Assembly: GCA_016212085.1 (NCBI GenBank)
Contig: JACRHL010000003.1
Coordinates: 321,178 to 385,177, forward strand
Length of the DNA stretch: 64,000 bases
Reading direction: 5' to 3'
Origin: Nitrospirota bacterium
Lineage (GTDB): Bacteria > Nitrospirota > JACRHL01
Under the pieces are notes generated by a model, which saw only the letters and a program-made list of their open reading frames with translations, searched no databases and was not told the DNA's origin. The translations under genes and the position numbers were made by a program. Below are positions 9,562 through 61,158 of this stretch, one piece after another; position 1 is the stretch's first letter; every line of letters starts with the position of its first letter.

Positions 9562-10464
9562 TCAGCTACGGTAGCCCATCTCCCGCAGGAACTGCGTGTC
9601 CTTGCGCCAGTTGGGCTGCACCTTCACGAACAGGCGCAGGTGCACCGGCTGGCCGGTCACCTGCTCCATCTGCGCGCGCGCCGCCTGGCCCAGGGCCTTG
9701 ATGCGGGCACCCCCCTTGCCGATGAGGATGCCCTTCTGGGAGTCGCGTTCCACGTAGATGGTGGCCCACACCCGGTCGCCGTCGTCCCCCTCCTGGTACT
9801 TGTCCACCGACACCGCCACCGCGTAGGGGATCTCCTCGGCGCATTGCAGGATGACCTGCTCGCGCACCAGCTCGCACACCAGGTCACGCAGGGTCTGGTC
9901 GGTGATCTCGTCGTCCGGGTAATAGGCGGGCCCCTCCGGCAGGCGCGCCAGGACCGGCGGCAGCAGGGTGGTGGCCGCCGCCGGCTCCAGGGCGCAGACG
10001 GTCACCATCTCGGCGAACGGCCCCAGCGCCGTGTAGGCGGCGCGGCGGGCGGCGCGGGCCGCCTCGGGCACCGTATCCCACTTGTTCAGGGCCAGGATCA
10101 CCGGCACCCCGGCGGCCAGGGCGCGCGCGGCCACCAGGTTGTCCCCCTCGCCGGGGTCGCGGCCGGCGTCCACCAGCATCACCACCACGTCCACCTCGGT
10201 CAGGGCCCCCTCCGCCGCCCGCACCATGGACTCGTTGAGGGCGAACTTGGGCTTGTGGAAGCCCGGCGTGTCGAGGAACACGATCTGGCTGCCGGGCAGG
10301 GTGAGCACGCCGCGGATGATGCGCCGGGTGGTTTGCGGCAGCGGCGTGGCGATGGCGATCTTCTCGCCCAGCAGGCGGTTGAGCAGGGTCGACTTGCCCA
10401 CGTTGGGGCACCCGGCCAGGGCCACGAAGCCGGAGCGGAAGCCGGGGGATGGAGAGGTTGTCAC
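9562..10464 (-). CDS. era: GTPase Era
   Basis: G1 motif AGCPNVGKST, DTPG, NKWD; C-terminal KH domain (GILIGKGGARIK). GTG start at 10464 preceded by GGAG; 300 aa. Confidence 0.85.
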   Translation of the reverse strand: MTTSPSPGFRSGFVALAGCPNVGKSTLLNRLLGEKIAIATPLPQTTRRIIRGVLTLPGSQIVFLDTPGFHKPKFALNESMVRAAEGALTEVDVVVMLVDAGRDPGEGDNLVAARALAAGVPVILALNKWDTVPEAARAARRAAYTALGPFAEMVTVCALEPAAATTLLPPVLARLPEGPAYYPDDEITDQTLRDLVCELVREQVILQCAEEIPYAVAVSVDKYQEGDDGDRVWATIYVERDSQKGILIGKGGARIKALGQAARAQMEQVTGQPVHLRLFVKVQPNWRKDTQFLREMGYRS

Positions 10465-10492
10465 GGTACGATCGGGCTCCGCTGGAGTGGCG

Positions 10493-12604
10493 TCAGGTGG
10501 CGGGAAAGGACAGCACGAACACCGCGCCGGCGGGGTCGCCACGCTCGACGTGGATGCGGCCGTGGTGCTCCTCCATGATACGCGATACGATGGCCAAACC
10601 CAGGCCGGTTCCCCCCTCGCGCCTGGAAAAATAGGGCTGGAATACCCGGCTCTCCTCGCCCTCGGCGACACCGGGGCCGGTGTCGGCCACGCGGATCTCG
10701 GCCCGGCCGTCGGGCACCACCCGGCCGGTCACGCGCACCTCGCCGCGTCCCCCCATCACCTGGATGGCGTTCTCGAACAGGTTCGTGAACACCCGGCGCA
10801 TCTGCTTCTTGTCGATCGCCAACTGGCCCACCGGGCCCGCATCGACCCGGATGGCCACGCCCGGATAGGCCTGCCGGTAGAGCCCGGCCACCTCGCCCAC
10901 CAGCCCCCAGATGTCGTCCGTCGCCAGGTTCACCTCGGGCATGCGCGCGAACTGGGAGAATTCGTCCACCAGGCGCTTGAGCCCGCCCACCTCCTCCAGG
11001 ATGGTGTTGGCCGTCTCCTCCACCACGTCGGGCAGCGGCTGACCGTCGCGGCTGTAGCGGCGCTTCAGGCGCTGCACCGAAAGCTGGATGGGGGTGAGCG
11101 GGTTCTTGATCTCGTGGGCCAGGCGCTGGGCCACCTCGCGCCAGGCGGCCTCCTTCTGCACCCGGATCAGCTCGGTCATGTCCGAGAACACCAGCACCTG
11201 GCCCAGGTTGGCGCCGTCCGGCCCCAGCACGCGGCGGGCGTGCACCTGCAAGGTGCGCGGACGGCCGTGACGCACCAGGTGCAGCTCCTGCTCCCGGTCG
11301 CGCTCGCCGGCGTGCAGCGGGCCGATCAACCCGGCGACCGGGGCCAGTTCCGGGTCGGCGAAGGCCTCGGCGAAGCCACGCCCCTTCACCCGCTCCGGGT
11401 CCAGCGACAGGATGTTGGCCGCGGCGCGGTTGAACAGGCTCACCCGCCCCGCCGGGTCGAGGGCGATCACGCCCGTGTCGGCGTTCACCAGGATCGCCTC
11501 CATGTAGGCCCGGCGCTCCTCCAGCTCCCGGTTGCTGGCGGTGAGGGAGCGGTTGGCGTGGGTGAGCTCGTCCTTGTTGCGGGCCAGTTGGGCGGTCATG
11601 GTGTTGAAGCCGTCCACCAGCTCGCCCACCTCGTCCCGGCTGGCGGGGCGCAGTTGCACCGCCAGGTTGCCGGCGGCCACCTCGCGGGTGCCGGCAACCA
11701 GGTTGAGCACCGGCGTGGTGATGCCGCGCGCGATGTAGAACCCGAACCAGGAGGCGGAAAACAGGATCACCAGGGCGATGAGCAGGAACGACAGCCGGTA
11801 GCCCTTCTTGATGGGTTCCTTGTAGGCGGCCAGTTGGGAGAAGTTCTCGTAATCCGCCGTGATCTGGCGCAGGGTGGCGATGGCGGCGGCGGGGATGGTG
11901 CGCTCCGCCACCAGGTAGCCCCAGTCGCCCAGGGGCACCCCGGCGCGCACCAGCTCGCCCCCGGCCACGGCCACGGTCTCGGTGCCGTCCGGCGGCGGCG
12001 GGGGCGTGCCCACGGTGCCCGCCGCCACCACCCGGTCGCGCGCCGGGCCATACATCACCGCCAGCCCGGACAGGCCCCACGCCCCGCGCTGGCGCTCCAG
12101 CCATTCCGAAAGCGCCGCCCGGTCCGGCGATGGCCCGCGCCGTTCGGCCATGGCCGCCAGGATCGCCGCGTCGGCCCCCACCCGCTCGTGCATCTCGCGG
12201 TAGCGCTCGCGGGCCACCTCCACCGCGCCCTGCATGGCCCCCTCGATCTGCGGCGAGAACCAGCCGTTGACGCTGTCCGTCAGCAGCCCCGAGGCGACCA
12301 CGAACATGAGCGCGGTGGGGATCAGCGAGAACCCCAGGAACGCCGCCACCAGCCGCGTGCGCAGACTCGACAGGCGCCCCTCCTCGAACACCCACTTGAG
12401 CAGGTTGCGCGACAGCACCAGGCCGACCAGCACCACCAGGATCAGGTTGATGTTGACCAGGGTCACCACCAGGATGTTGCTGCCACCCTGCCCGTGAATG
12501 CGCGACAGCAGGGCGAGCGAACCCGCCAGCACCAGCAGCAGGGCAACGATGCCCGCCTTGGCGAGGCCGCTCGCGCGGCGCGGCGCGCCGGCCGGCTCGG
12601 TCAC
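10493..12604 (-). CDS. sensor histidine kinase (NtrY-like: TM-HAMP-PAS-HisKA-HATPase)
   Basis: H-box AHEIKNPLTPIQLS, N/G-box segments (FENAIQV, DTGPGV, GGTGLGLAIV); GTG start 12604 overlaps upstream stop (GTGA). Confidence 0.8.
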   Translation of the reverse strand: MTEPAGAPRRASGLAKAGIVALLLVLAGSLALLSRIHGQGGSNILVVTLVNINLILVVLVGLVLSRNLLKWVFEEGRLSSLRTRLVAAFLGFSLIPTALMFVVASGLLTDSVNGWFSPQIEGAMQGAVEVARERYREMHERVGADAAILAAMAERRGPSPDRAALSEWLERQRGAWGLSGLAVMYGPARDRVVAAGTVGTPPPPPDGTETVAVAGGELVRAGVPLGDWGYLVAERTIPAAAIATLRQITADYENFSQLAAYKEPIKKGYRLSFLLIALVILFSASWFGFYIARGITTPVLNLVAGTREVAAGNLAVQLRPASRDEVGELVDGFNTMTAQLARNKDELTHANRSLTASNRELEERRAYMEAILVNADTGVIALDPAGRVSLFNRAAANILSLDPERVKGRGFAEAFADPELAPVAGLIGPLHAGERDREQELHLVRHGRPRTLQVHARRVLGPDGANLGQVLVFSDMTELIRVQKEAAWREVAQRLAHEIKNPLTPIQLSVQRLKRRYSRDGQPLPDVVEETANTILEEVGGLKRLVDEFSQFARMPEVNLATDDIWGLVGEVAGLYRQAYPGVAIRVDAGPVGQLAIDKKQMRRVFTNLFENAIQVMGGRGEVRVTGRVVPDGRAEIRVADTGPGVAEGEESRVFQPYFSRREGGTGLGLAIVSRIMEEHHGRIHVERGDPAGAVFVLSFPAT

Positions 12605-25620: not shown

Positions 25621-26574
25621 ATGGTGCGCCAATACCTGGATTTCGAGAAACCCATCGCCGACATCCACGAGCAGATCGAGTCCCTGCGCGCGTCCGGCGC
25701 CGCCCCCGGCACCCACGACAAGGAGCTTGAGCGCCTCACCAAGAAGGCCCACTCCCTCGAGGTGGACATCTACGGCAAGCTCTCCCCCTGGCAGCAGACG
25801 CAACTGGCGCGCCACCCGGAGCGCCCCTCCATGCTCGACTACGTGGAAAAGTTCGTGGAGGGCTTCCTGGAACTGCACGGCGACCGCGCCTATCGGGACG
25901 ATCCGGCCATCGTCGGCGGCATCGGCCGTATCGGCACGCGCGAGGTGGTGATCATCGGCAACCAGAAGGGCCGCACCCTCAAGACCCGCGTCATCCGCAA
26001 CTTCGGCATGGCCAACCCGGAGGGGTACCGCAAGGCCCTGCGCCTGATGCACATGGCCGAGCGCTTCAAGAAGCCCGTGGTCTGCTTTGTCGACACCCCC
26101 GGCGCCTACCCCGGCATGGGCGCCGAGGAGCGCGGCCAGTCCGAGGCCATCGCCCGCAACCTGATGGAGATGGGCCGGCTCAAGGTGCCCATCGTGGTGG
26201 TCATCATCGGCGAGGGCGGCTCCGGCGGCGCCCTGGCGGTGGGCGTGGGCGACCGCATCCTGATGCTCGAGAACTCCGTCTACTCCGTCATCTCCCCCGA
26301 GGGGTGCGCGGCCATCCTGTGGAAGGACGGCACCAAGACCGCCACCGCCGCCGAGGCCCTGAAGGTGACCGCCAAGGATCTGTTGGCGCTGAAGGTGATC
26401 GACGAGATCCTGCCCGAGCCCCTGGGCGGCGGCCACCACGACGTGACCCAGATGTCCACCACCATCCGCACCGCCATCGTGCGCCACCTGGACCAGCTCG
26501 AGAAGATGTCCGAGAAGGAGCGCACCGAGGCCAGGTACCAGAAGTTCCGCGCCATGGGCGTGTACGAGGGCTAG
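25621..26574 (+). CDS. accA: acetyl-CoA carboxylase carboxyltransferase subunit alpha
   Basis: 317 aa colinear with remembered AccA (DFEKPIA, FDDPAIVGG-like, GEGGSGGALA); RBS ggag. Confidence 0.95.
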   Translation: MVRQYLDFEKPIADIHEQIESLRASGAAPGTHDKELERLTKKAHSLEVDIYGKLSPWQQTQLARHPERPSMLDYVEKFVEGFLELHGDRAYRDDPAIVGGIGRIGTREVVIIGNQKGRTLKTRVIRNFGMANPEGYRKALRLMHMAERFKKPVVCFVDTPGAYPGMGAEERGQSEAIARNLMEMGRLKVPIVVVIIGEGGSGGALAVGVGDRILMLENSVYSVISPEGCAAILWKDGTKTATAAEALKVTAKDLLALKVIDEILPEPLGGGHHDVTQMSTTIRTAIVRHLDQLEKMSEKERTEARYQKFRAMGVYEG

Positions 26575-26652
26575 ACCGCTGGACGGTACAGACCGAGACG
26601 CCCCCCGAGACGACGCCCCGCCCGGCGCCCCCGCGCCCCAGCCCCCCCGGTC

Positions 26653-26742
26653 CGCCGGCAGCCTGCCGGACAATTCCCTGCCCGACGGCAGCCCGCCGGA
26701 TGATTCGTTTTCCGACGGCAGCCTGCCGTTCGGGCCCCTGCG
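26653..26742 (+). repeat. three tandem 30-bp direct repeats, each with a near-palindrome GGCAGCCTGCC
   Basis: Units cgccggcagcctgccggacaattccctgcc / cgacggcagcccgccggatgattcgttttc / cgacggcagcctgccgttcgggcccctgcg. Confidence 0.6.
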
Positions 26743-26947
26743 CTACCGCATCGACCGCCGCGAGATCGCCTATTTAAGCTCCCTGTTCGAGTCCTACGAG
26801 GACCTGGGCGCCATCCGTACCCTGGACCCGGTGGCGGCGATCATCGAGGTTCTGTATGCTCCGGATTGCTACGCGGACGTGGTGGCGTTGATGACGGCGC
26901 TGGAGGGGGAGGTGGAGAGCCTGGAACGGATGCCACCGCTCCCGTAG
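26738..26947 (+). CDS. small conserved-looking ORF (DUF4911-like) lacking a canonical start codon
   Basis: Protein-like translation ...YRIDRREIAYLSSLFESYEDLGAIRTLDPVAAIIEVLYAPDCYADVVALMTALEGE...; no in-frame ATG/GTG/TTG upstream; CTG at 26738 proposed; family assignment from memory only. Confidence 0.3.
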   Translation: MRYRIDRREIAYLSSLFESYEDLGAIRTLDPVAAIIEVLYAPDCYADVVALMTALEGEVESLERMPPLP

Positions 26948-26968
26948 GCTGGCGCTGAATGAAATGAA

Positions 26969-27023
26969 GCCCAACGGTTCGGGGTTGCCGACGAACCATG
27001 AACGGGAAACGGGGGTGTTGGGC
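26969..27023 (+). other. attC-like site (candidate): GCCCAAC ... GTTGGGC
   Basis: Perfectly complementary 7-mers matching integron core consensus RYYYAAC / GTTRRRY, 41 bp apart, at the left boundary of the low-GC island. Confidence 0.3.
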
Positions 27024-27089
27024 TTCGCGTTGCATGCGCCAGAAGCTCGTCGATACAACGCTCCAATCGCCTGGGGATGGGAGATGGTC

Positions 27090-27815
27090 ATGAAGAAACT
27101 TGAAATTAAGAACTGGGACGGATTTTCGGGCAAGATCAGCGAAATTGAAAAGGATGCCTCGGAAAACAGCAACGCCATTCGGCTATTCCGAGGGGTTACC
27201 GATCATCAACATAACCTAGTCCCGAAAATCGGGAGACCCGGCGCGCGGAAGAATCCGGCAGATGGGACGCAACTGTCCCATTGCAAGGATGAAGAGCGTA
27301 AGATGTTGGAACTGTTCAAGAGGACGGCTCTTCCATACCTTCCATATCAGCCCAGGAATGATCTGGAGTGGCTTGCCGTTGCCCAACACCACGGAGCGCC
27401 GACCCGCCTGATTGACTGGACGGAAAGTCCCCTGGTTGCAGCGTATTTCGCGATGGAGAAGGCTGGCACGGAGGGGCAGCCGGCGATCTACGTGCTTTCC
27501 GGGACTGCGGAAGCCCCGGAGAAACTAGTTGACGAAAAGCCGGATGTCTTCTCCTGGACCGAGACGTACTGCTACCGTCCGCCACACATCAGTCCCCGTA
27601 TCCAAGTTCAGCGGAGCGTGTTCACCATACACCATTGTCCTTCGTCGGAGTTCAATCCAGATAACCTTGAAAAATGGGTGTTCCCGAAAGGTCCAACGTG
27701 CTTCGAGATCAAACGCATACTTGATCGTGTGGGCTTTAACCGAGCATCCCTATATCCAGATTTACAGGGGTTGGCAGAACACGTCGGATGGTGCTACAAG
27801 TGGGGCCGCTTCTAG
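27090..27815 (+). CDS. FRG-domain protein
   Basis: LFRGVTDHQHNLVPKIGR and AQHHGAPTRLIDWTESPLVAAYFA motifs characteristic of the FRG domain; ~47% GC versus ~70% background; ATG 27090 with gggag RBS. Confidence 0.7.
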   Translation: MKKLEIKNWDGFSGKISEIEKDASENSNAIRLFRGVTDHQHNLVPKIGRPGARKNPADGTQLSHCKDEERKMLELFKRTALPYLPYQPRNDLEWLAVAQHHGAPTRLIDWTESPLVAAYFAMEKAGTEGQPAIYVLSGTAEAPEKLVDEKPDVFSWTETYCYRPPHISPRIQVQRSVFTIHHCPSSEFNPDNLEKWVFPKGPTCFEIKRILDRVGFNRASLYPDLQGLAEHVGWCYKWGRF

Positions 27816-27880
27816 TGGCAAGTTGGGGTTCGCTCCGCTCTGCCAAACTTATATAGCTTTTCCAACTGGGAAACCGTGCT

Positions 27881-28276
27881 TTGAACATCCACGCAATCAC
27901 CGTCTCAGCCGTTAGGATCGCTCTAGCTGCTCTCATGTGCGGCGGATTGGCATCTTGCGTCCATACACGAAGTATCACCTACGAAACGACCGACAGGCCG
28001 CCGAAGCCACAAGACCGATTGATCGGGATCGTGGACTCCCAAACCGTTACTAGGCCATTCACGATCATCGGTGTTGTAGAAGGAAACGCCGGGAAGCTGC
28101 ATAGTGTCGTGGATACGTTGGAAAACCTCAAGCGTGCGGCTCGGCGGATGGGCGGCGACGCCTTGATGGATATTCAACACGGGCCCAAGGGGGGTGTGGC
28201 AGTGCCCTTCGGAAGCGGCTATGCCTATGGGAATTTAAGGGAAATCTGGTCAGCGAAAGTGATTATCTGGCAGTAG
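27881..28276 (+). CDS. putative lipoprotein (hypothetical)
   Basis: Signal peptide with lipobox LASC; ~55% GC; TTG start at 27881 (uncertain); weak resemblance to the YbjQ-like fold only. Confidence 0.4.
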   Translation: MNIHAITVSAVRIALAALMCGGLASCVHTRSITYETTDRPPKPQDRLIGIVDSQTVTRPFTIIGVVEGNAGKLHSVVDTLENLKRAARRMGGDALMDIQHGPKGGVAVPFGSGYAYGNLREIWSAKVIIWQ

Positions 28277-30459: not shown

Positions 30460-30720
30460 CCGCCCCCCGGCCGGGCGGCCGAAAGGCGCATATTTTCGGC
30501 ATTTTACAGTCCTTGACCTCGCCCGGCGGCCTTCCGATGATGAAGGGGTAAGTCGCCGGCATGGACGCTGGCGGCGCAAAACGCTTGTTCGGAGTTCGGT
30601 CATGCTTGACCGATTGCGCACCCGCCTCTACCTTTCCTGGCACCACCCGGCCCGGCGCCGGGCCGCTTGCACCCGCCACGGGGCCGTCCGCCCCGGTCCG
30701 CCCACTTCCGGAGACCCTGC

Positions 30721-32394
30721 ATGACCATGATCAGTCACGACGTTGTGATTGTCGGCGCCGGCCTGACCGGCATGCGCGCCGCCATCGAGATGGGTCCGGG
30801 CGTGGACGTGGCGGTGATCTCCAAGGTGCATCCGGTGCGCTCCCACTCCGGCGCCGCCCAGGGGGGCATCAACGCCGCCCTGCGCGAGGAGGACTCGTGG
30901 GAGAGCCACGCCTACGACACGGTAAAGGGCAGCGACTACCTGGGCGACCAGGACGCCATCGAGATCATGTGCCGCGAGGCCCCGTCGGACATCCGCCAGA
31001 TGGAGCACTGGGGGGTGATCTTCTCCCGCGCCGACGACCGGCGCATCGCCCAGCGCCCGTTTGGCGGCGCCGGCTACCCGCGCACCTGCTACGCCGCCGA
31101 CCGCACCGGCCACGCCCTGCTGCACGCCATGTACGAGCAGGTGATGAAGCGCCGGGTGAAAGTGTACACGGAGTGGTTCCTCACCTCGCTGATCGTGGAG
31201 AACGGCGAGTGCCAGGGCGTCACCGTGCTCGACATGGCCTCGGGCGAGCTGGTGGCGGTGCGCGCCAAGGCGGTGGTGTTCGCCACCGGCGGCTACGGCC
31301 GGGTATACCTGACCAGCTCCAACGGCCTGGTCAACACCGGTGACGGCATGGCGGTGGCCTACCGCGCCGGCGCCCCGCTGATGGACATGGAGTTCGTGCA
31401 GTTCCACCCCACCACCCTCAAGTCGAACGGGGTGCTGATCACCGAGGGCAGCCGCGGCGAGGGTGGCATCCTCATCAACGCCAAGGGCGAGCGCTTCATG
31501 AGCAAATACGCCCCCAACGCCATGGAGCTGGCCAGCCGCGACGTGGTCTCCCGCTCGGAGCAGACCGAGATCAACGAGGGGCGCGGGGTGGACGGCTGCG
31601 TGCTGCTCGACCTGCGCCACCTGGGACGCGACAAGATCCTGGAGCGGCTGCCGCAGATCCGCGACCTGGCCATCAAGTTCGCCGGCACCGATCCCATCGA
31701 GGTGCCCATCCCGGTGCGCCCCGGCGCCCACTATTCCATGGGCGGCATCAAGGTCGACGTGGACGGCGCCACCCCCATGCCGGGCCTGTTCGCCGGCGGC
31801 GAGTGCGCCTGCGTGTCGGTGCACGGCGCCAACCGCCTGGGCGGCAACTCCCTGCTGGAGACCATCGTGTTCGGGCGCCGCGCCGGCACCGCCGTGAACC
31901 GCTACATCACCGGGCGCGCCATGCCCATCCCCGGCGACCACCACCTGGCGGCCCAGCGGGACCGCATCCACACCCTCATGTCCCGTTCCGGCGGGGAGCG
32001 CGGCAACCTGCTGCGCCACGAGCTGGGCACGGTCATGAACACCGACGTGGGCGTGTTCCGCGACGAGAAGGGCCTGATGGAGGCGGTGGCCAAGGCGCGC
32101 GAGATCAACGACCGCGCCCAAAGCCTCTGGGTCATGGACAAGTCGCGGGTGTTCAACACCGACCTGACCGAGGCCCTGGAGATGCAGAACGTGGCCGAGC
32201 TGGCGCAGACCATCGCCGCCGGCGCCCTGGCCCGCAAGGAGTGCCGCGGCGCCCACTACCGCAACGACCACCCGGGGCGCGACGACGCGAACTGGATGAA
32301 GCACACCCTGGCCCGGTGGACGCCCGACGGCCCCGAGCTGTCCTATTCGGCGGTGACGGTCACCAAATACCAGCCCCAGGAACGCAAATACTGA
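30721..32394 (+). CDS. sdhA: succinate dehydrogenase / fumarate reductase flavoprotein subunit
   Basis: FAD motif [10 protein letters not shown], covalent-FAD region SHSGAAQGG, catalytic HPTT and RxGxxS blocks; RBS ggag. Confidence 0.9.
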
Positions 32395-32417
32395 GCGACC
32401 CGTTTTAAGGACCCGTC

Positions 32418-33374
32418 ATGCGCATTGAAATCGAGATCGAGCGCTCCAACCCGGCGGAGGGGCAACCGGCCCGCTTCGAGACCTTCCGCGTCGAGGTGCC
32501 GCGCCACATCACCGTGCTCGACACCCTCATCAAGCTCAAGAACGAGGTGGACGGCTCCATCACCTTCCGCCGCTCCTGCCGCAGCGCCATCTGCGGCTCG
32601 TGCGCCATGCGCATCAACGGCCGTTCGGGCCTGGCCTGCGACACCCTGGTGGAGGACGAACTGCACCGCTTCGGCCACCTGCGCGTGCAGCCCCTGGCGC
32701 ACATGCCGGTGATGCGCGACCTGGCGGTGGACATGCAGCCGTTCTGGAACCGGGTGGAGGCGGTCAACCCGTGGGTGGAAACGGCCCCGGAGCGCGAGCC
32801 CGCGTGGCCCGTGGAGCGCGAGACGCTCATGGACCAGGCCGCCGTGGACGAGATGGACGACACCTCCAAGTGCATCATGTGCATGGCGTGCTTCTCCGCC
32901 TGCGAGGTTTCCGACGTGGACACCCGCTTCCTGGGCCCGGCGGCCCTGGCCAAGGCCTACCGGGTGGTGGCCGACCCGCGTGACGAGCGCAAGCAGGAAC
33001 GCCTGACGGCGTTGAACGAGGTGGGCGGCTACTGGGATTGCACCCGCTGCAACCAGTGCGTGCAGGCCTGCCCCAAGGACGTGAAGCCCATGGAGGCGAT
33101 CGTCCACCTGCGCCGCGAGGCCATCAACGCCGGCCTCACCAACACCGCCGGCAGCCGCCACATCACCGAGTTCATCAAGATCGTGCGCTCGGAAGGGCGC
33201 CTGAACGAAGGGCGCATGCCGCTCAAGATGGTGCTGAGCGATCCGAAAAAGCTGCTCTCGGTGCTGCCGCTGGCGGTGGACATGCTGCGCCACGGCAAAC
33301 TGCCCTCCCCCATCCACCCGCCCATTCCGCGGGTGAAGGAGGTTCGGCGCATCATGGACAAGAAGGCCAAATAA
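32418..33374 (+). CDS. sdhB: succinate dehydrogenase / fumarate reductase iron-sulfur subunit
   Basis: 2Fe-2S motif CRSAICGSC and 4Fe-4S/3Fe-4S clusters (CIMCMACFSAC, CTRCNQCVQACP); extended C-terminus. Confidence 0.9.
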   Translation: MRIEIEIERSNPAEGQPARFETFRVEVPRHITVLDTLIKLKNEVDGSITFRRSCRSAICGSCAMRINGRSGLACDTLVEDELHRFGHLRVQPLAHMPVMRDLAVDMQPFWNRVEAVNPWVETAPEREPAWPVERETLMDQAAVDEMDDTSKCIMCMACFSACEVSDVDTRFLGPAALAKAYRVVADPRDERKQERLTALNEVGGYWDCTRCNQCVQACPKDVKPMEAIVHLRREAINAGLTNTAGSRHITEFIKIVRSEGRLNEGRMPLKMVLSDPKKLLSVLPLAVDMLRHGKLPSPIHPPIPRVKEVRRIMDKKAK

Positions 33375-33375
33375 C

Positions 33376-34257
33376 ATGAAGCTGAAGTACGCATACTATA
33401 CGGGCTGCGCCGCCAAGGGCGTGTGCCCCGAGCTGGACCAGGCCACCCAGGCGGTGGCCCGCGCCCTGGACATCGAGCTGATCGAGCTCACCGCCGCGTC
33501 GTGCTGCGGCGCCGGCGTGATCGGCGAGCTGGAGTACGATACCCAGCTGGCCATGAACGCCCGCAACCTGGCCATGGCCGAGCAGCTCGGCCTCAACATG
33601 ATGACCATCTGCGGCACCTGCCAGGGGGTGATCTCCCGCGCCAACGTGGCGTTGCAGCACACCGCCACCCGCGACCGCATCAACCAGGGCCTGATCGGCA
33701 ACGGCGGCATCTACAAGGGCACCACCGGCGTGCTGCACCTGCTGTGGGTGCTGGTGAAGGAGTTCGGCCTGGCGCGGCTGGAGCAGGCGGTGACCCACCC
33801 GCTCACCGGCCTTAGGGTCGGGCCGTTCTACGGCTGCTACATCCTGCGCCCGTCCGAATACCTGGGTTTCGACGACCCCTACAACCCGCGCAGCCTGGAG
33901 GGGGTGATCCGCGCCCTGGGCGCGGAGCCGGTGGACTATTCCGGCCGCACCAAGTGCTGCGGCTTCCCCATCGTGCTGGAGAACGAGTCCAACGCCATGA
34001 AGATGGTGGGCGCCCACCTGCTGGAGGCGAAGGGCAACGGCGCCGACTGCCTGGTGACCCCCTGCCCCCTGTGCCACATGAACCTGGACCTGTACCAGGG
34101 CAAGGCGGAGCAGGAGATGCACCGCAAGATCGGCCTGCCCATCCTGCACCTGCCGCAACTGGTGGGCCTGGCCCTGGGCCTGGGGCCCGAGGCGCTGGGC
34201 CTGCGCCGGAACATGGTGGACGCCATGCAACTGGCCGCCGACGTGGGGGCCACCTAG
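33376..34257 (+). CDS. CCG-domain (HdrB-like) third subunit of a non-classical succinate dehydrogenase/fumarate reductase
   Basis: Two cysteine-rich CCG motifs (ASCCGAG, KCCGFP) plus CPLC; no predicted TM anchor. Confidence 0.8.
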   Translation: MKLKYAYYTGCAAKGVCPELDQATQAVARALDIELIELTAASCCGAGVIGELEYDTQLAMNARNLAMAEQLGLNMMTICGTCQGVISRANVALQHTATRDRINQGLIGNGGIYKGTTGVLHLLWVLVKEFGLARLEQAVTHPLTGLRVGPFYGCYILRPSEYLGFDDPYNPRSLEGVIRALGAEPVDYSGRTKCCGFPIVLENESNAMKMVGAHLLEAKGNGADCLVTPCPLCHMNLDLYQGKAEQEMHRKIGLPILHLPQLVGLALGLGPEALGLRRNMVDAMQLAADVGAT

Positions 34258-34281: not shown

Positions 34282-34446
34282 GGGCACCTCTATTAACCGT
34301 CGCGCGCGCCCCCTGGTGCCAGGTGCCCCGAGCGGAGCGGCACCGTTACGCCGCGCGGAACCCGAGACATATCCGGGTGATGGGCGAGGGTTCGAGCACC
34401 GCTGGGCGCGGCAATCGGGGCGCGCGGCAGGTTGATAGAGGTGCCC
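34282..34446. mobile_element. 165-bp MITE, family B (copy with internal expansion)
   Basis: TIRs GGGCACCTCTATTAACC / GGTTGATAGAGGTGCCC; no matching target duplication; abuts transposase remnant. Confidence 0.7.
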
Positions 34447-34610
34447 AGGCGTTTGGCGTCCGACACGGGCGTGCCACCGAACTTGTTGCGCCAGAGGTAA
34501 CAGCTCGCCTCCGAGAACCCGTGCCGCCGGCACAAGTCCTTCACCGGCATTCCGGCATCGGCCTCGCGCAGAAAACCGGTGATCTGCTCTTCCGAAAACC
34601 GCTTCTTCAT
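34447..34610 (-). pseudogene. IS3-family transposase OrfA N-terminal fragment (truncated by MITE)
   Basis: MKKRFSEEQITGFLREADAGMPVKDLCRRHGFSEASCYLWRNKFGG...DAKRL (HTH region of IS3/IS911-type OrfA) with GGAG RBS; reading frame then runs into the repeat. Confidence 0.55.
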
Positions 34611-34881
34611 GTCCAATCTCCTTCCGGTTCAGGGATTGGGCTCTCAATCGGGGCGCTACTGAAAGAGGGGGAGACGTCGGTCCGGAGACGTGTTGCGCCC
34701 CATGCCGCCAATCGGATGAAATAACGGACTGGCAATCCGATGTTCATGGTTGTGGGCAGGCGGGCGGTGTCTCGATCCGGTGGCTTCCGGGCCGACTCCG
34801 CCGTTGTCAGAGGGCGATTGGTGAGTCGGCGTCATCTGGCCGCGCGGCCCTTTGGCTGAAGAATTCAGGAGATGTTTCGTG

Positions 34882-35922
34882 ATGCACGACGTGGTGCAAG
34901 ACTATTACGGGCGGCAGTTGCGGTCTTCCGAAGACCTCAAAACCTCTGCCTGCTGCGATCCGACGCGGGTTCCCGCTTGGCTGAAACCGCTGCTGGCCAA
35001 CATCCACGAGGAGGTGCTGGAGCGTTACTACGGCTGCGGCCTGATCTGCCCGCCCCTTCTGGAGGGGTTGACCGTGCTGGACCTGGGCTGCGGCAGCGGG
35101 CGCGACGTGTACGCCCTGGCCCAACTGGTGGGGCCGACGGGGCGCGTGGTGGGCGTGGACATGACGGAGGAGCAGCTTGCCGTGGCGCGCCGCCACTAGG
35201 CACATCACGCGGAGCTGTTCGGCTTTTCCAACGTGGCATTCGAGCACGGCTTCATCGAACGCCTCGACGCGCTGGACCTGCCGGCGGGCGGGTTCGACGT
35301 GATCGTTTCCAACTGCGTGGTGAACCTGTCGCCGGACAAGGATGCGGTGCTGGCCGGCGTGCACCGGCTGCTCAAGCCGGGCGGCGAGTTCTATTTTTCC
35401 GACGTGTACGCGGACCGGCGCGTGCCGGACGCGGTGCGGAACGATCCGGTGTTGTATGGCGAATGCCTGGGCGGCGCCCTGTACTGGAACGACTTCCTGC
35501 GCGCCGCCCACCGGGCCGGGTTCGCCGACCCCCGGTTGCAGGAGGACCGGCCCCTGGCGGTGACGGATCCGGAACTGGCGGAGCGGGCCGCTGGTGTCAA
35601 CTTCCACGCGGCCACCTGGCGCCTGTTCAAGCTGGACGGGTTGGAGACCGCCTGCGAGGATTACGGCCAGGCGGTGGTCTACCGGGGTACCGTGCCCGGT
35701 CACCCCAACCGCTTCGCGCTCGACAAGCATCACGACATCCAGACCGGCCGGGTGTTCCCCGTGTGCGGCAACACCTGGCGCATGCTGGCCGATACGCGCT
35801 TTGCGCCGCATTTCGCGTTCATCGGGGATTTTTCGCGTCACCACGGCCTGTTCGAGGGGTGTGGCGGAGGCATCCCGTTCGACCGCGCCGCCCCGCCGGA
35901 CACGCAAAAAGGGTGCTGTTGA
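34882..35922 (+). pseudogene. arsM: arsenite S-adenosylmethionine methyltransferase with in-frame TAG
   Basis: N-terminal Cys pair (TSACCDPT), SAM motif VLDLGCGSGRD, C-terminal Cys; single in-frame amber codon at 35197-35199 (ARRH*AHHAELF), frame otherwise continuous. Confidence 0.65.
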
Positions 35923-36010: not shown

Positions 36011-36250
36011 GTGACGCCCTTCCTGCGCGCCGCGTTCCGGCGCCCCACCGTCCTTGGCGCCATCCAGGTGTCGGTGGTGGTGGGGAGCATGCTGAACGTC
36101 ATCAACCAGGGTGAGGCGTGGCTCCACGGCGCGTCCGTCTCCGTGGGGCACCTGATCCTCAATTATCTGGTCCCGTACGGCGTGGCGACGTTCAGCGCGG
36201 CGCGCACCGAGCTGCGCCGCTGCCCACCGGACGAGGAGGGGCATTCATGA
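36011..36250 (+). CDS. NrtS-like small membrane protein (putative nitrate/nitrite transporter family)
   Basis: ~80 aa; FLRAAFRRPTVLGAIQVSVVVGSMLNVINQGEAW...LNYLVPYGVATF resembles the NrtS family from memory; GTG start. Confidence 0.4.
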   Translation: MTPFLRAAFRRPTVLGAIQVSVVVGSMLNVINQGEAWLHGASVSVGHLILNYLVPYGVATFSAARTELRRCPPDEEGHS

Positions 36251-37054
36251 CCATCGGCCCGCGTCGTCCCAGTTCAGCGAATGATGGTCGAACCCGTGCT
36301 CCAGGGTCGGCTTGACCACCGCGAAGTAGGGTGACACGTCAAAGTCCCGGGGGGTGAACAGGCTGTGGTGGCGGACTCGCAGTACCTCCTCCACGCATCC
36401 CCGGCAGCCGGGGCGATCCGCGTCCTTCCGGCCCACCAGGGGAAGAATGGGATAGCGGATCGACTGGAACGCCTGGGCGATGAGGGTGGAGCAGATGGCG
36501 CGGGTGGGATCGCCGCCGCCCAGGGCCAGCATGCGACGCCGGAAGCGTCCGGGAACGGGCGGGGTGGGGAACAGGTAACGCGCCAGGTCCACGACGTTGC
36601 GCAGATCGTAGCGGTCGCCGATGCGGGCGATGACGAATGCGGTCACCCGCCGCACTTCCGCCGGCGTCAGGCCGATCGGCCGGCAGATGCGGGTGGGCCG
36701 ATCGGCAAAGGCGGCGATGCCCACGGCACGCACGCCGTCCAGCGGATCCGCCTCCACGAACAGGCATGACGGCTTTCCGCCTGCCTCGGCCAGGTGGGTT
36801 CCCACGAACAGGGCCGCGTGGGTCCAGGTGGACTGGGTGAGGTAGCTGATGGCGGCGCTCAGGCGCGTGCCCCCCTCCACCAGCAGCACGTCGCCCGGCC
36901 TAAGGCAGGCCAGCAGCAACTCCGGCGGGGTGGGGCGCCCCGTGCCGTCCGTGTGCACCGGACGCGTGAGGAAGCGCGCCAGTCGTGTCCCGATCTGTTC
37001 CAGGATGCCGTTCACGGGCGGAGGGGCCGGGTGGGGGGAGGTGGCGCCCCCCAC
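36245..37054 (-). CDS. YiiX/YebB-like permuted papain-fold hydrolase (putative)
   Basis: GDVLLVEGGTRLSAAISYLTQSTWTHAALFVG block resembles the permuted NlpC/P60-like YiiX family; GTG start. Confidence 0.5.
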   Translation of the reverse strand: MGGATSPHPAPPPVNGILEQIGTRLARFLTRPVHTDGTGRPTPPELLLACLRPGDVLLVEGGTRLSAAISYLTQSTWTHAALFVGTHLAEAGGKPSCLFVEADPLDGVRAVGIAAFADRPTRICRPIGLTPAEVRRVTAFVIARIGDRYDLRNVVDLARYLFPTPPVPGRFRRRMLALGGGDPTRAICSTLIAQAFQSIRYPILPLVGRKDADRPGCRGCVEEVLRVRHHSLFTPRDFDVSPYFAVVKPTLEHGFDHHSLNWDDAGRWS

Positions 37055-47323: not shown

Positions 47324-47523
47324 GACGGTTTCCTCCTGATCAGGGCCCATGCGATCATGCCCACGAAGCATGCCAGGGCCGGCAGCAACACGTAGTTCAG
47401 CCACCCCACCCACGCCGACAGGCCCAAGGCGCCCAGCAGGATCACCAGCGCGGGCGTGAAGCAGCAGACGGCGGCGAGGGTGGTGCCGGCGATTCCGGTC
47501 CCGAGCAGTCTCTTGTCCGTCAT
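47311..47523 (-). CDS. merF: mercury transporter MerF-like
   Basis: 70 aa, two TM helices, vicinal Cys (LAAVCCFTPALVILLG), C-terminal Cys; ATG overlaps merB stop (ATGA). Confidence 0.75.
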   Translation of the reverse strand: MTDKRLLGTGIAGTTLAAVCCFTPALVILLGALGLSAWVGWLNYVLLPALACFVGMIAWALIRRKPSCRS

Positions 47524-48302
47524 CGTGATGTCCTTCGCGGGTTGGATGCAAGGGTTGAAAGCGGCGCCAGGAGCGGCGCGAAGATGGCCTTGCCGACCTG
47601 GAGCCCCTCGTCGATGGAGAGGCGCACACCCGGCGCGCCCCCTGGTTGAGATTGGCGCCAGGATACGAGGTGCTCGTCGGAGCAGAAGAACGCCAGCGCC
47701 GGGCAGAGGGTGTCGGCGGCACAGCCGCCGGTGTTCCTCGCCCCCGCCCAGACCACGGCGCCCTCGGGCGCCACGGCCTCCAGGGTAGCGCCCCGGTCTC
47801 GGGTGGTGACATGGACGGCCGCGCCGCAAGTGGCGCAGGCCGAGTCGATGGCGGTGTCTGTGCGATACATGGCCCCGGCGCCCAGGGCGTCGATGGCGCA
47901 CATGGCGTTCAGCACCTGGCCGCCCAGCCGTACCCGGTGCCCGGTTTCCCGGTCCCGGAACGGGTAGGCCCCCGTCACGTCGCCGTGTGCGTCCAGCACC
48001 ACCAGGTCGCGCCCTTCCAGTTGCCGCAGCAGGCGGCGTACCTCGTCCAGCGGCAGGTCGGCGGCGAGGTGTTCGACGGAAGGGGCACGGCCCCGATCCG
48101 CATAGCCATCGAGCACGGCCCGCCGCACGCGGTCCTCCGCCTCCCCCATGCCGGTCCAGCACCGTTCGGCGTCGAATGCGGCGAGGATCGCGGCCAGTGC
48201 CCGACGGGCCGCCTCCGAGGTGATTGCCGACCAATCCGGGAAGGTCACGCCGGGTCCGATGGAGATTTCGAGGGGGGTCCGGGTGGGTCGCGGTATGTCC
48301 AT
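47520..48302 (-). CDS. merB: organomercurial lyase
   Basis: Catalytic-region match (NAMCAIDALG with Cys/Asp, later Cys cluster); ~45-aa N-terminal extension; GGAGG RBS before ATG 48302. Confidence 0.7.
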   Translation of the reverse strand: MDIPRPTRTPLEISIGPGVTFPDWSAITSEAARRALAAILAAFDAERCWTGMGEAEDRVRRAVLDGYADRGRAPSVEHLAADLPLDEVRRLLRQLEGRDLVVLDAHGDVTGAYPFRDRETGHRVRLGGQVLNAMCAIDALGAGAMYRTDTAIDSACATCGAAVHVTTRDRGATLEAVAPEGAVVWAGARNTGGCAADTLCPALAFFCSDEHLVSWRQSQPGGAPGVRLSIDEGLQVGKAIFAPLLAPLSTLASNPRRTSR

Positions 48303-48322
48303 GCGCTGGCCCTCCATGCTCA

Positions 48323-48465
48323 GGGCACCTCTATTAACCGTCGCGAGCGCTCCGATTGCAAGGCGGACGGAGCGGAGAACCCGAGACATATCTGGGTGAT
48401 AGGCGAGGGTTCGAGCACCGCCCAACGCAGCAATCGGAGCGCGCAGTAGGTTAATAGAGGTGCCC
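48323..48465. mobile_element. 143-bp MITE, family B (inside mer operon, between merP and merB)
   Basis: TIRs GGGCACCTCTATTAACC / GGTTAATAGAGGTGCCC; 4-bp duplication CTCA on both sides. Confidence 0.75.
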
Positions 48466-48466
48466 C

Positions 48467-48748
48467 TCACTCGACCGGCCGCGAGGGGTAGCCGGCGTTG
48501 GTCGTCGCCCGGGTGAGGGCCCCCACGTCCGTGAGCACATCGTCGAACGTCACCACGGCTTGCTTGTGCAACAGGGACACCTTGACCGCCTTCACGCCGG
48601 GAACATGGGAAAGGGCCTTTTTCACGGTGATCGGGCAGGTGACGCAGGTCATCCGCTCCACCCCCAGGGTGACGGTCCGCTCCGTCGCGATGGCGTTTCC
48701 GGTGGACACCAGGAGAGCGACGGCCACCAGGATCGGTACAAGCTTCAT
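48467..48748 (-). CDS. merP: periplasmic mercury-binding protein
   Basis: Signal peptide plus HMA motif GMTCVTCPITVKKAL; 93 aa; AGGAGGG RBS. Confidence 0.85.
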   Translation of the reverse strand: MKLVPILVAVALLVSTGNAIATERTVTLGVERMTCVTCPITVKKALSHVPGVKAVKVSLLHKQAVVTFDDVLTDVGALTRATTNAGYPSRPVE

Positions 48749-48768
48749 CGGATCGTCCCTCCTTCCGT

Positions 48769-49155
48769 TCAGACACCCCCGTACAGGGGGGCCAGGTAGG
48801 GCAGCGCCAGGATCGCCAGCACCAGTAGCGCCGCGCTCCACAAGGCAATCTTCACCATCCGCCCGGAACCGGGCCGGGTGCACTCCCCCTCCGGCCCGCA
48901 GGCGGCCGCCGGCTTCCGGTAGGCGAGCCGGAACCCGGCGGCGAGCAGGACGACGGTCAGGGCCATGAAGTAGGGCTGGTACGGCGCCAGGGCCGTCAGC
49001 CCGCCCATCCAGGCGCCGCCCAACCCCAGGCTTACCAGCACCAGCGGCAGGATGCAGCAGGACGAGGCGGCGAGTGCCCCCAGCACGGCGCCGCCGGCGA
49101 CCACGCCGCGCCGGGCATGACCGCCGCCAATGTGCTCTCCACCCGCGTCCTTCAC
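48769..49155 (-). CDS. merT: mercuric ion transport protein
   Basis: First TM helix with vicinal Cys (LAASSCCILPLVLVSLG), second Cys pair (CGPEGEC); GTG start 49155 overlaps upstream stop (GTGA); alternative ATG 49218. Confidence 0.7.
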   Translation of the reverse strand: MKDAGGEHIGGGHARRGVVAGGAVLGALAASSCCILPLVLVSLGLGGAWMGGLTALAPYQPYFMALTVVLLAAGFRLAYRKPAAACGPEGECTRPGSGRMVKIALWSAALLVLAILALPYLAPLYGGV

Positions 49156-49418
49156 AGCGCCCGACCGACGCCCGCGGCTCGCAACCGCGCCTCGTCCACC
49201 CCCGCGCCCGCACAGCATTGGGCCAGGCGGCCATCCACCGCCACCGCCGGGAGCGCCCGCACCCCCAGATCGGCCGCCTTCGCCGCCACGGCGGGTGCGC
49301 GCATGTCCAGCACGCTCACCGCGCACGCGGGGCAGGCGAGCCGCTCCACGAGGCGGACCGCCTCCTCGCACACGGGGCACCCGGCGCTGAATACCTCGAC
49401 CCTGCGTTTGTCGGTCAT
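49152..49418 (-). CDS. thioredoxin-fold protein with CPxC active site
   Basis: 88 aa; RVEVFSAGCPVCEEA...LPAVAVDGRL resembles small thioredoxin-family proteins; GGAGGAA RBS; first gene after the mer promoter. Confidence 0.6.
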   Translation of the reverse strand: MTDKRRVEVFSAGCPVCEEAVRLVERLACPACAVSVLDMRAPAVAAKAADLGVRALPAVAVDGRLAQCCAGAGVDEARLRAAGVGRAL

Positions 49419-49518
49419 CGTTCTTCCTCCCGACTTGCGTGGCCGCCGCCCCCGGAAAACGGGTTTGGCGGCCGTGCGGTTCCATACCTGGCAGGGGCCG
49501 CGTGCCCCCTCTTCTGCT

Positions 49519-49549
49519 ACGATAGAACCTGTAGTGGCTACAGGTTCAA
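49519..49549 (-). promoter_or_regulatory. MerR-type promoter/operator: -35 TTGAAC, 19-bp spacer containing dyad, -10 TATCGT
   Basis: On the minus strand TTGAAC-(19 bp)-TATCGT; the spacer holds the perfect inverted repeat GAACCTGTAG-tgg-CTACAGGTTC (49525-49547); lies between divergent merR and the mer operon. Confidence 0.6.
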
Positions 49550-49566
49550 GGGGGGAGCGGAAAAAA

Positions 49567-49989
49567 ATGGGCACGGAAGCGGATTCGGTCTGTTCCATCG
49601 GGGCGCTGGCGGCGCGTACCGGCGTCAACGCGGAGACGATCCGCTACTACGAGCGGATCGGGCTGTTGCCCCGGCCGCGGCGCACGGACGGCGGACATCG
49701 CCTGTACGACCACGGCCAGCGCAAGCGGCTCGTCTTCATCCGGCGGGCGCGGGAGCTGGGCTTCTCGGTGGAAGAGGTGCGGGAACTGCTACGGCTGGTG
49801 GACGGCGGCGATCACACCTGCGCCGAGGTGAAATCCGTCACCGTGCGTCATCTGGCCGACGTGCGCCGGAAGCTCGCGGATCTCGGGAAGCTGGAGCGGA
49901 CCTTGGGCACGATCTCCGCGCGCTGCGCGGGCGGACTGGTGCCGGACTGCCCCATCCTGGATGCGCTGTTCGAGGACGGGCTTGGCTAG
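49567..49989 (+). CDS. merR: Hg(II)-responsive transcriptional regulator MerR
   Basis: N-terminal HTH (IGALAARTGVNAETIRYYERIGLL), metal-binding Cys triad (HTCAEV ... CAGGLVPDCP); GGGGAG RBS. Confidence 0.85.
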   Translation: MGTEADSVCSIGALAARTGVNAETIRYYERIGLLPRPRRTDGGHRLYDHGQRKRLVFIRRARELGFSVEEVRELLRLVDGGDHTCAEVKSVTVRHLADVRRKLADLGKLERTLGTISARCAGGLVPDCPILDALFEDGLG

Positions 49990-60741: not shown

Positions 60742-61158
60742 CTACACGCAGTCCCAGAACAGGGCGTTGGTGTGCCCGGAATCCGACTCGCCGGTGTTCC
60801 GGTACAGCAGGAAGTGGAGCACCTCGTGCTTCCACACATAGGGGCTGCCCAGCTTGATGGTGTTGGGCGTGACGAACTCGCCGCTGCATCCGGCCTCGTA
60901 CCAGCGGCACGGGAACTGGGGCTGCATCATCACCACGGTAAGCTCCTCGTACAGGCCTTCCGTAAAGCCGGTGCAGGCCTTCGTCTCGTTGAAGCTGGTT
61001 TCCAGGTATTCGGCCAGGGTGGCGTCGGTAAACAGGCCCGGGGGGTTGGCCTTGGGCATGCCGCCGCCGGTCAGATCCGCGCCACCACAACTCGCCAGTA
61101 TCAGCAGACCGGCCGCCGCCAGGCAGGCGCGCAACCAGATCCGGAGTATTCCGGGCAT
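60742..61158 (-). CDS. hypothetical Cys-containing lipoprotein
   Basis: Lipobox LLILASCGG; 138 aa with 5 further Cys; GAGGAA RBS. Confidence 0.55.
   Translation of the reverse strand: MPGILRIWLRACLAAAGLLILASCGGADLTGGGMPKANPPGLFTDATLAEYLETSFNETKACTGFTEGLYEELTVVMMQPQFPCRWYEAGCSGEFVTPNTIKLGSPYVWKHEVLHFLLYRNTGESDSGHTNALFWDCV

Follow-up and report, generated by a model that had tools for sequence, protein, structure and literature searches.

A Nitrospirota arsM gene with a single in-frame amber codon is a candidate for a recent nonsense pseudogene

Long-form arsenite S-adenosylmethionine methyltransferases (ArsM/AS3MT) are known from the structures of the Cyanidioschyzon (CmArsM, PDB 4fr0/4kw7) and Chlamydomonas (CrArsM, 5evj) enzymes. 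The family has four conserved cysteines, C44, C72, C174 and C224 of CmArsM; the last two bind As(III). In the stretch of Nitrospirota DNA analysed here, 64 kb in length and called the window throughout, a gene is found that resembles these enzymes from end to end, sharing their C-terminal domain, SAM motif I and all four cysteines, and that differs from them by a TAG at codon 106.

In-frame stop codons are also a feature of methyltransferase genes with recoded stops. The likeness to the methylamine methyltransferases that contain pyrrolysine, encoded by UAG, is superficial, as it consists of an in-frame UAG in a methyltransferase gene. Those enzymes belong to another family, whereas the UAG of arsM is unconserved, occupies a variable, non-catalytic position and is followed by no RNA structure; moreover, TAG is widely used as a stop around it, and neither pyl genes nor any tRNA gene were detected in the 64-kb window. 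The selenoproteins of the ArsM family (NCBIfam NF041537, NF041536 and NF047649) are themselves ArsM-like methyltransferases with a recoded in-frame stop. Their models match ArsM partially, with E-values of ~1e-31 to 1e-33, and far under their cut-offs (116 versus 510 bits). These proteins use UGA for selenocysteine, at or near cysteines and in fused domains, while the codon here is a UAG at a variable Arg/Gln position, for which no SECIS-like structure or Rfam match was found.

The similarity to amber pseudogenes that arose by CAG-to-TAG changes is closer. Here as there, a single premature stop lies one transition away from a common codon of the orthologues, and the stop is a normal terminator. 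As in other nonsense pseudogenes, the affected gene is an accessory one, probably horizontally acquired and situated by the relic of a mobile element, and we see no substantive difference from this class. A search of the literature on arsM pseudogenes returned nothing relevant.

The reading frame extends on the plus strand from the ATG at 34882 to the TGA at 35920-35922 (34882-35922, 346 codons plus stop), and its translation contains a single internal stop: codon 106 of the 346 is a TAG (35197-35199), in the context CAC-TAG-GCA. A Shine-Dalgarno-like AGGAG (34867-34871) is located 10 nt 5' of the ATG, and these translation start signals are still undamaged. The gene was assigned as a long-form arsM from its Methyltransf_31 domain, its match to the ArsM structure 5evj and the lengths of its homologues. 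With X at codon 106, the translation matches Pfam Methyltransf_31 over residues 61-212 (E 6.2e-36), Chlamydomonas ArsM (5evj) over residues 4-344 in one stretch (E 3.5e-101), and Cyanidioschyzon ArsM (4fr0/4kw7) over residues 2-326, again in one stretch (E ~5e-87; 5.5e-87 for 4fr0). Homology in the same frame on either side of the TAG rules out a chance arrangement. The original prediction of a frame that is open for 105 codons, meets a TAG at 35197-35199 and continues with conserved sequence was exact, the alignment to the ArsM structures being uninterrupted. SAM motif I, of the GxGxG type, is kept as LDLGCGSG, and C24, C52, C145 and C195 correspond to C44, C72, C174 and C224 of CmArsM according to the numbering offsets in the 4kw7/4fr0 alignment.

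The NCBIfam model NF008823 scores 174 bits against a cut-off of 263 and covers only residues 3-232 (the model has 272 positions), as expected for the long-form subfamily. Homologues from this subfamily carry only the NCBI name 'methyltransferase domain-containing protein'. Among 5.8 billion protein clusters, the best 120 homologues are 344-352 residues long and 74-81% identical, and their source names are either 'arsenite methyltransferase' or 'methyltransferase domain-containing protein'. Leaving the NF008823 score aside, the locus has every sequence feature that defines a long-form ArsM except an open reading frame, which makes it a candidate for an arsM-derived pseudogene rather than an intact arsM.

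The residue replaced by the TAG, which the original prediction had proposed to identify by alignment with ArsM orthologues, falls in a variable column that is mainly Arg or Gln: in 120 homologous proteins, R is found 72 times, Q 36, L 5, H 3, E 2, and K and S once each. At the codon level, 160 homologous loci from genomes and metagenomes have CGC (56), CAG (40), CGT (12), CGG (12), CAA (7) and others in this column. CAG is therefore the second most common codon, and by far the most frequent of those one step from TAG, the others being AAG (4), GAG (2) and TTG (2). The homologues with the closest local sequence (AVARQHQA-HAE) have Gln at the position. In the structures, codon 106 corresponds to V128 (CmArsM) and A128 (CrArsM), neither of them catalytic; it probably falls within the helix after strand beta-2 of the Rossmann fold, at a distance from the catalytic residues.

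As CAG occurs at 40 of the 160 loci and is one transition from TAG, a C-to-T change of CAG is the simplest origin of the stop, and the ancestral codon was most likely CAG (Gln). This ancestry is deduced and not observed directly, because the closest intact relatives that were found are at most 81% identical. The present CTAGG is the product expected from a C-to-T change in CCAGG. In E. coli, CCAGG is a Dcm methylation hotspot for amber mutations, with deamination of the methylated site giving CTAGG. A hotspot of this type was considered for arsM as well and rejected: the sequence around the stop would suit it, but the window shows no depletion of CCWGG (observed/expected 0.99-1.00), so that nothing supports Dcm-type methylation.

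Apart from the TAG, the gene is undamaged. At 174 conserved columns, defined by at least 97% agreement among the homologues, ArsM deviates twice, by the conservative exchanges V55I and S243A; intact homologues deviate at 1.15 of these 174 columns on average and at 5 at most. The TAG is the sole defect of the gene, and the lack of further damage indicates that the inactivation is recent.

Given that TAG normally ends genes in this organism, ArsM synthesis is expected to halt after residue 105. The predicted product (34882-35199, plus strand) is a 105-residue N-terminal fragment, whose exact sequence (P0121) is present in the protein collection, where it was called on the Logan contig SRR12113396_141044. 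This fragment keeps C24, C52 and SAM motif I and is devoid of the rest of the Rossmann fold, of C145 and C195 and of the C-terminal domain. Without most of the fold, the As(III)-binding cysteines and the C-terminal domain it is expected to be inactive, which suggests a loss of ArsM function. We propose that a single point mutation, most likely C-to-T, converted CAG (Gln) to TAG at codon 106, and that translation would then end after 105 residues. With good confidence, arsM can be regarded as a recent nonsense pseudogene, or as a null allele that is dominant in the sampled population. Of the readings offered by the original prediction, that of a recent nonsense mutation is favoured, with the TAG as the only defect and one transition away from CAG; the two others, sequencing error and recoded stop, are disfavoured by the evidence presented below.

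The use of TAG as terminator was examined in a crude, GC3-based gene prediction that gave 38 ORFs in the window. TAG ends about 14 of the 36 predicted genes other than arsM, including dnaE, accA, guaA and guaB. The first three run to their TAG at profile positions 1143 of 1146, 317 of 319 and 512 of 512, respectively; the guaB ORF ending in TAG encodes 488 residues, the same length as the NCBI protein P0122, from which it differs at none of the 487 residues compared (100% identity). A genome-wide reassignment of TAG was rejected, given that these four genes end in TAG at their profile ends and that no further in-frame stop is found. The proportion of TAG stops is unusually high for a genome of ~70% GC; in such genomes TGA normally dominates as stop. 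CTAG is strongly under-represented in the window, with 19 occurrences observed and 58 expected.

A six-frame scan of the 64-kb window for stops inside continuous high-GC3 coding signal revealed no in-frame stop in any other gene. A second candidate TAG, at 60742-60744 on the minus strand, was dismissed: a small lipoprotein-like gene genuinely ends there, and beyond it the frame is the antisense of a plus-strand gene. Other genes with an in-frame TAG and a suppressor tRNA, which the original prediction had proposed to look for, are both absent from the 64-kb window.

These observations weigh against a read-through of the TAG, by which some full-length ArsM would be made via a suppressor tRNA, a pyrrolysine system encoded elsewhere or leaky near-cognate decoding, and by which the TAG could even throttle arsM expression. 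We consider this improbable. TAG ends essential genes at their true ends, there is no second in-frame TAG in the window, and a TAG in the codon-106 column is seen at none of the other 160 homologous loci. In favour of read-through, the lack of any decay besides the TAG is also compatible with a gene that is still under selection, for instance by way of read-through, and the ribosome-binding AGGAG and the ATG are intact. Furthermore, the codon-106 column takes R, Q, L, H, E, K, S, I, V and N in homologues, so nearly any inserted amino acid should be acceptable. The RNA 3' of the TAG, however, is unremarkable: the fold of the 116 nt from 35185 to 35300 has about the stability expected of shuffled sequence (z = -0.16). 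The base that follows the TAG is a G, and a G after the stop is not a leaky context in E. coli termination. The 64-kb window contains no Rfam family match and no tRNA, with the tRNA search covering only this part of the genome. These sequence features do not support programmed recoding, whether by pyrrolysine, of the selenocysteine type or otherwise, and the recoded stop of the original prediction is disfavoured: TAG terminates essential genes, is not conserved in orthologues and is accompanied by no tRNA, Rfam match or structure in the window. A more specific form of this idea, and slightly less probable still, is that a suppressor tRNA or another mechanism encoded outside the window lets the Nitrospirota host decode UAG often enough to be useful, with ArsM still made and perhaps throttled. 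It would, if true, explain the absence of other decay in arsM, and if read-through were shown, the locus would be an interesting case of natural amber suppression.

It is also very unlikely that the T at 35197 was introduced during sequencing or assembly and that the genome in fact has a sense codon there. The window apparently comes from a metagenome-assembled genome, for which low coverage or mixed strains can give consensus errors; the TAG, however, survives a different assembler and occurs in more than one run. The Logan contig on which the 105-residue product was called (921 bp, assembled separately from SRR12113396) is 100% identical to positions 34417-35337 of the window, TAG included, and is recorded in three samples. 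The runs SRR12113393, SRR12113394, SRR12113396 and SRR12113407 contain genes of this organism that neighbour arsM. The Logan contigs and the window assembly probably share a sample series, so their agreement is independent of the assembler and not of the samples. In addition, the TAG site is outside any homopolymer, and the collection holds no protein more than 81% identical with a sense codon at this position.

No intact arsM allele was detected among about 15 billion proteins. When the first 152 residues were used as a protein query, only the truncated 105-residue product exceeded 81% identity, and among exact look-ups of alternative-start variants of both fragments only the 105-residue form matched. 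An exact 47-nt pattern with NNN at codon 106 had no match in metagenome contigs, and scans for an intact allele returned only relatives of at most 80% identity from genome contigs and of at most 79% from a protein-based scan of metagenomes. As no protein of the collection that spans the site exceeds 81% identity besides the truncated form, an intact allele of this lineage has not been assembled anywhere.

Downstream of the TAG, a remnant ORF with a GTG start (35233-35922, plus strand, 229 residues) retains C145, C195 and the C-terminal domain. The 18 nt 5' of this GTG are CTGTTCGGCTTTTCCAAC. A restart here is unlikely, as the GTG lacks a preceding Shine-Dalgarno sequence and the resulting piece would not restore an intact fold. 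That arsM works as two separately translated pieces, the 105-residue N-terminal and the 229-residue C-terminal one, which reassemble into an active enzyme, is hardly conceivable, for although an in-frame GTG is present 34 nt past the TAG and the gene caller called an ORF there, that start has no Shine-Dalgarno sequence, the Rossmann fold would be cut with residues 106-117 dropped, the best 120 homologous proteins are all single chains of 344-352 residues, and 160 of 160 homologous loci align as one piece, with no orthologue split at codon 106.

The preferred reading of arsM as a nonsense pseudogene can be compared with a further stop-bearing homologue. On the metagenome contig Ga0208788_1000498, from a different organism, an arsM (locus L099, 3001-4041) with 76% identity and a GC content of 61% has in-frame TAGs at codons 73 and 162, where homologues mainly have Ser and His/Gln, respectively. 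It deviates at four conserved columns, including a G-to-S exchange in the YYGCG motif, and the other genes on 7 kb of this contig contain no in-frame stop. It is probably a more decayed arsM pseudogene. Together with the arsM of the window, premature stops are found in 2 of 161 homologous loci; this would correspond to about the usual background rate of pseudogenes in bacterial genomes.

The host belongs to the Nitrospirota. An NCBI 'Nitrospirae bacterium' MAG encodes, on a 448-kb contig, a protein with 100% identity to its guaB product, and the next relatives are from Nitrospirota and Leptospirillia (75-85%). A plasmid origin of the window was rejected: plasmid matches are only distant, with 67% identity to DNA of the Nitrobacter pPB12 type, and the window carries the chromosomal housekeeping genes dnaE, accA, guaA, guaB and lpd. 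An ars operon context was not found either. Upstream of arsM are sdhA, sdhB and a gene for a CCG-domain subunit (30667-34257), forming a cluster of the succinate dehydrogenase/fumarate reductase type, and downstream, on the other strand, are genes for a C92-like peptidase, a CMD-family protein and an SRPBCC protein.

Between the sdh cluster and arsM, 200 bp upstream of the latter, an IS3-family element (IS1389/IS407-like) has left a truncated 236-bp relic of its left end (34447-34682, minus strand). The relic comprises only the 5' end and about the first 57 codons of orfA, from the helix-turn-helix region, as identified by HTH_Tnp_1 and blastn: an ORF at 34293-34616 (minus) matches Pfam HTH_Tnp_1 with an E-value of 4.9e-15, and query positions 200-435 are 76% identical to IS3-like IS1389 transposase genes in blastn. 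Short-read Logan contigs break at this relic.

The nearest relatives of arsM are from Beta- and Gammaproteobacteria, with at most 81% identity (Thermomonas 80%, Undibacterium 79%), and these stand in unrelated gene neighbourhoods. The GC3 of arsM is 0.83-0.88, versus 0.93-0.97 for its neighbours. The proteobacterial relatives, their unrelated neighbourhoods and the lower GC3 point to a horizontal acquisition, and the Nitrospirota host probably obtained arsM from Proteobacteria.

Some further features of the surroundings were recorded. Directly 3' of arsM is a candidate ORF for a hydrophobic protein of 79 residues (36011-36250, plus strand), which has no Pfam or NCBIfam match and no tblastn match in 84 loci, i.e. 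80 homologous arsM genome loci and four contigs of this organism. The adjoining peptidase-like gene (36245-37054, minus strand) is of the C92 type (YaeF/YiiX-like permuted papain). Homologues of it, with 53-68% identity, also adjoin arsM in four unrelated proteobacterial loci (L016, L059, L072 and L049), which hints at a loose association between arsM and C92 genes. The closest intact arsM homologues (loci L169, with 1911-2894 and 9595-11824, and L170) adjoin genes for a PHO4 phosphate transporter and a DUF6969 protein; in L169, arsM is also near a radical-SAM/DUF3641 gene of the ArsS-like type, which is associated with the synthesis of arsenosugars. The PHO4/DUF6969/radical-SAM context is missing from the window. 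About 12 kb from arsM, genes for a protein with a MerB (alkylmercury lyase) domain (47520-48848, minus strand) and for a MerR-family regulator (49117-49989, plus strand) are located, so that metal and metalloid genes are scattered across the region and not combined in one operon. At 26000-28000, the GC content drops to 0.615, compared to ~0.70, with a gene for an FRG-domain protein at ORF 26964-27815 (plus strand); this patch may be another foreign insertion.

Overall, the arsM of the window would be an ordinary nonsense pseudogene of an already known kind. The locus is best annotated as a pseudogene of arsM that has an internal stop, and in metabolic inference for this Nitrospirota genome it should not count as arsenic-methylation capacity. 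It would be a small and clean case of an accessory gene that was gained horizontally and lost soon afterwards.
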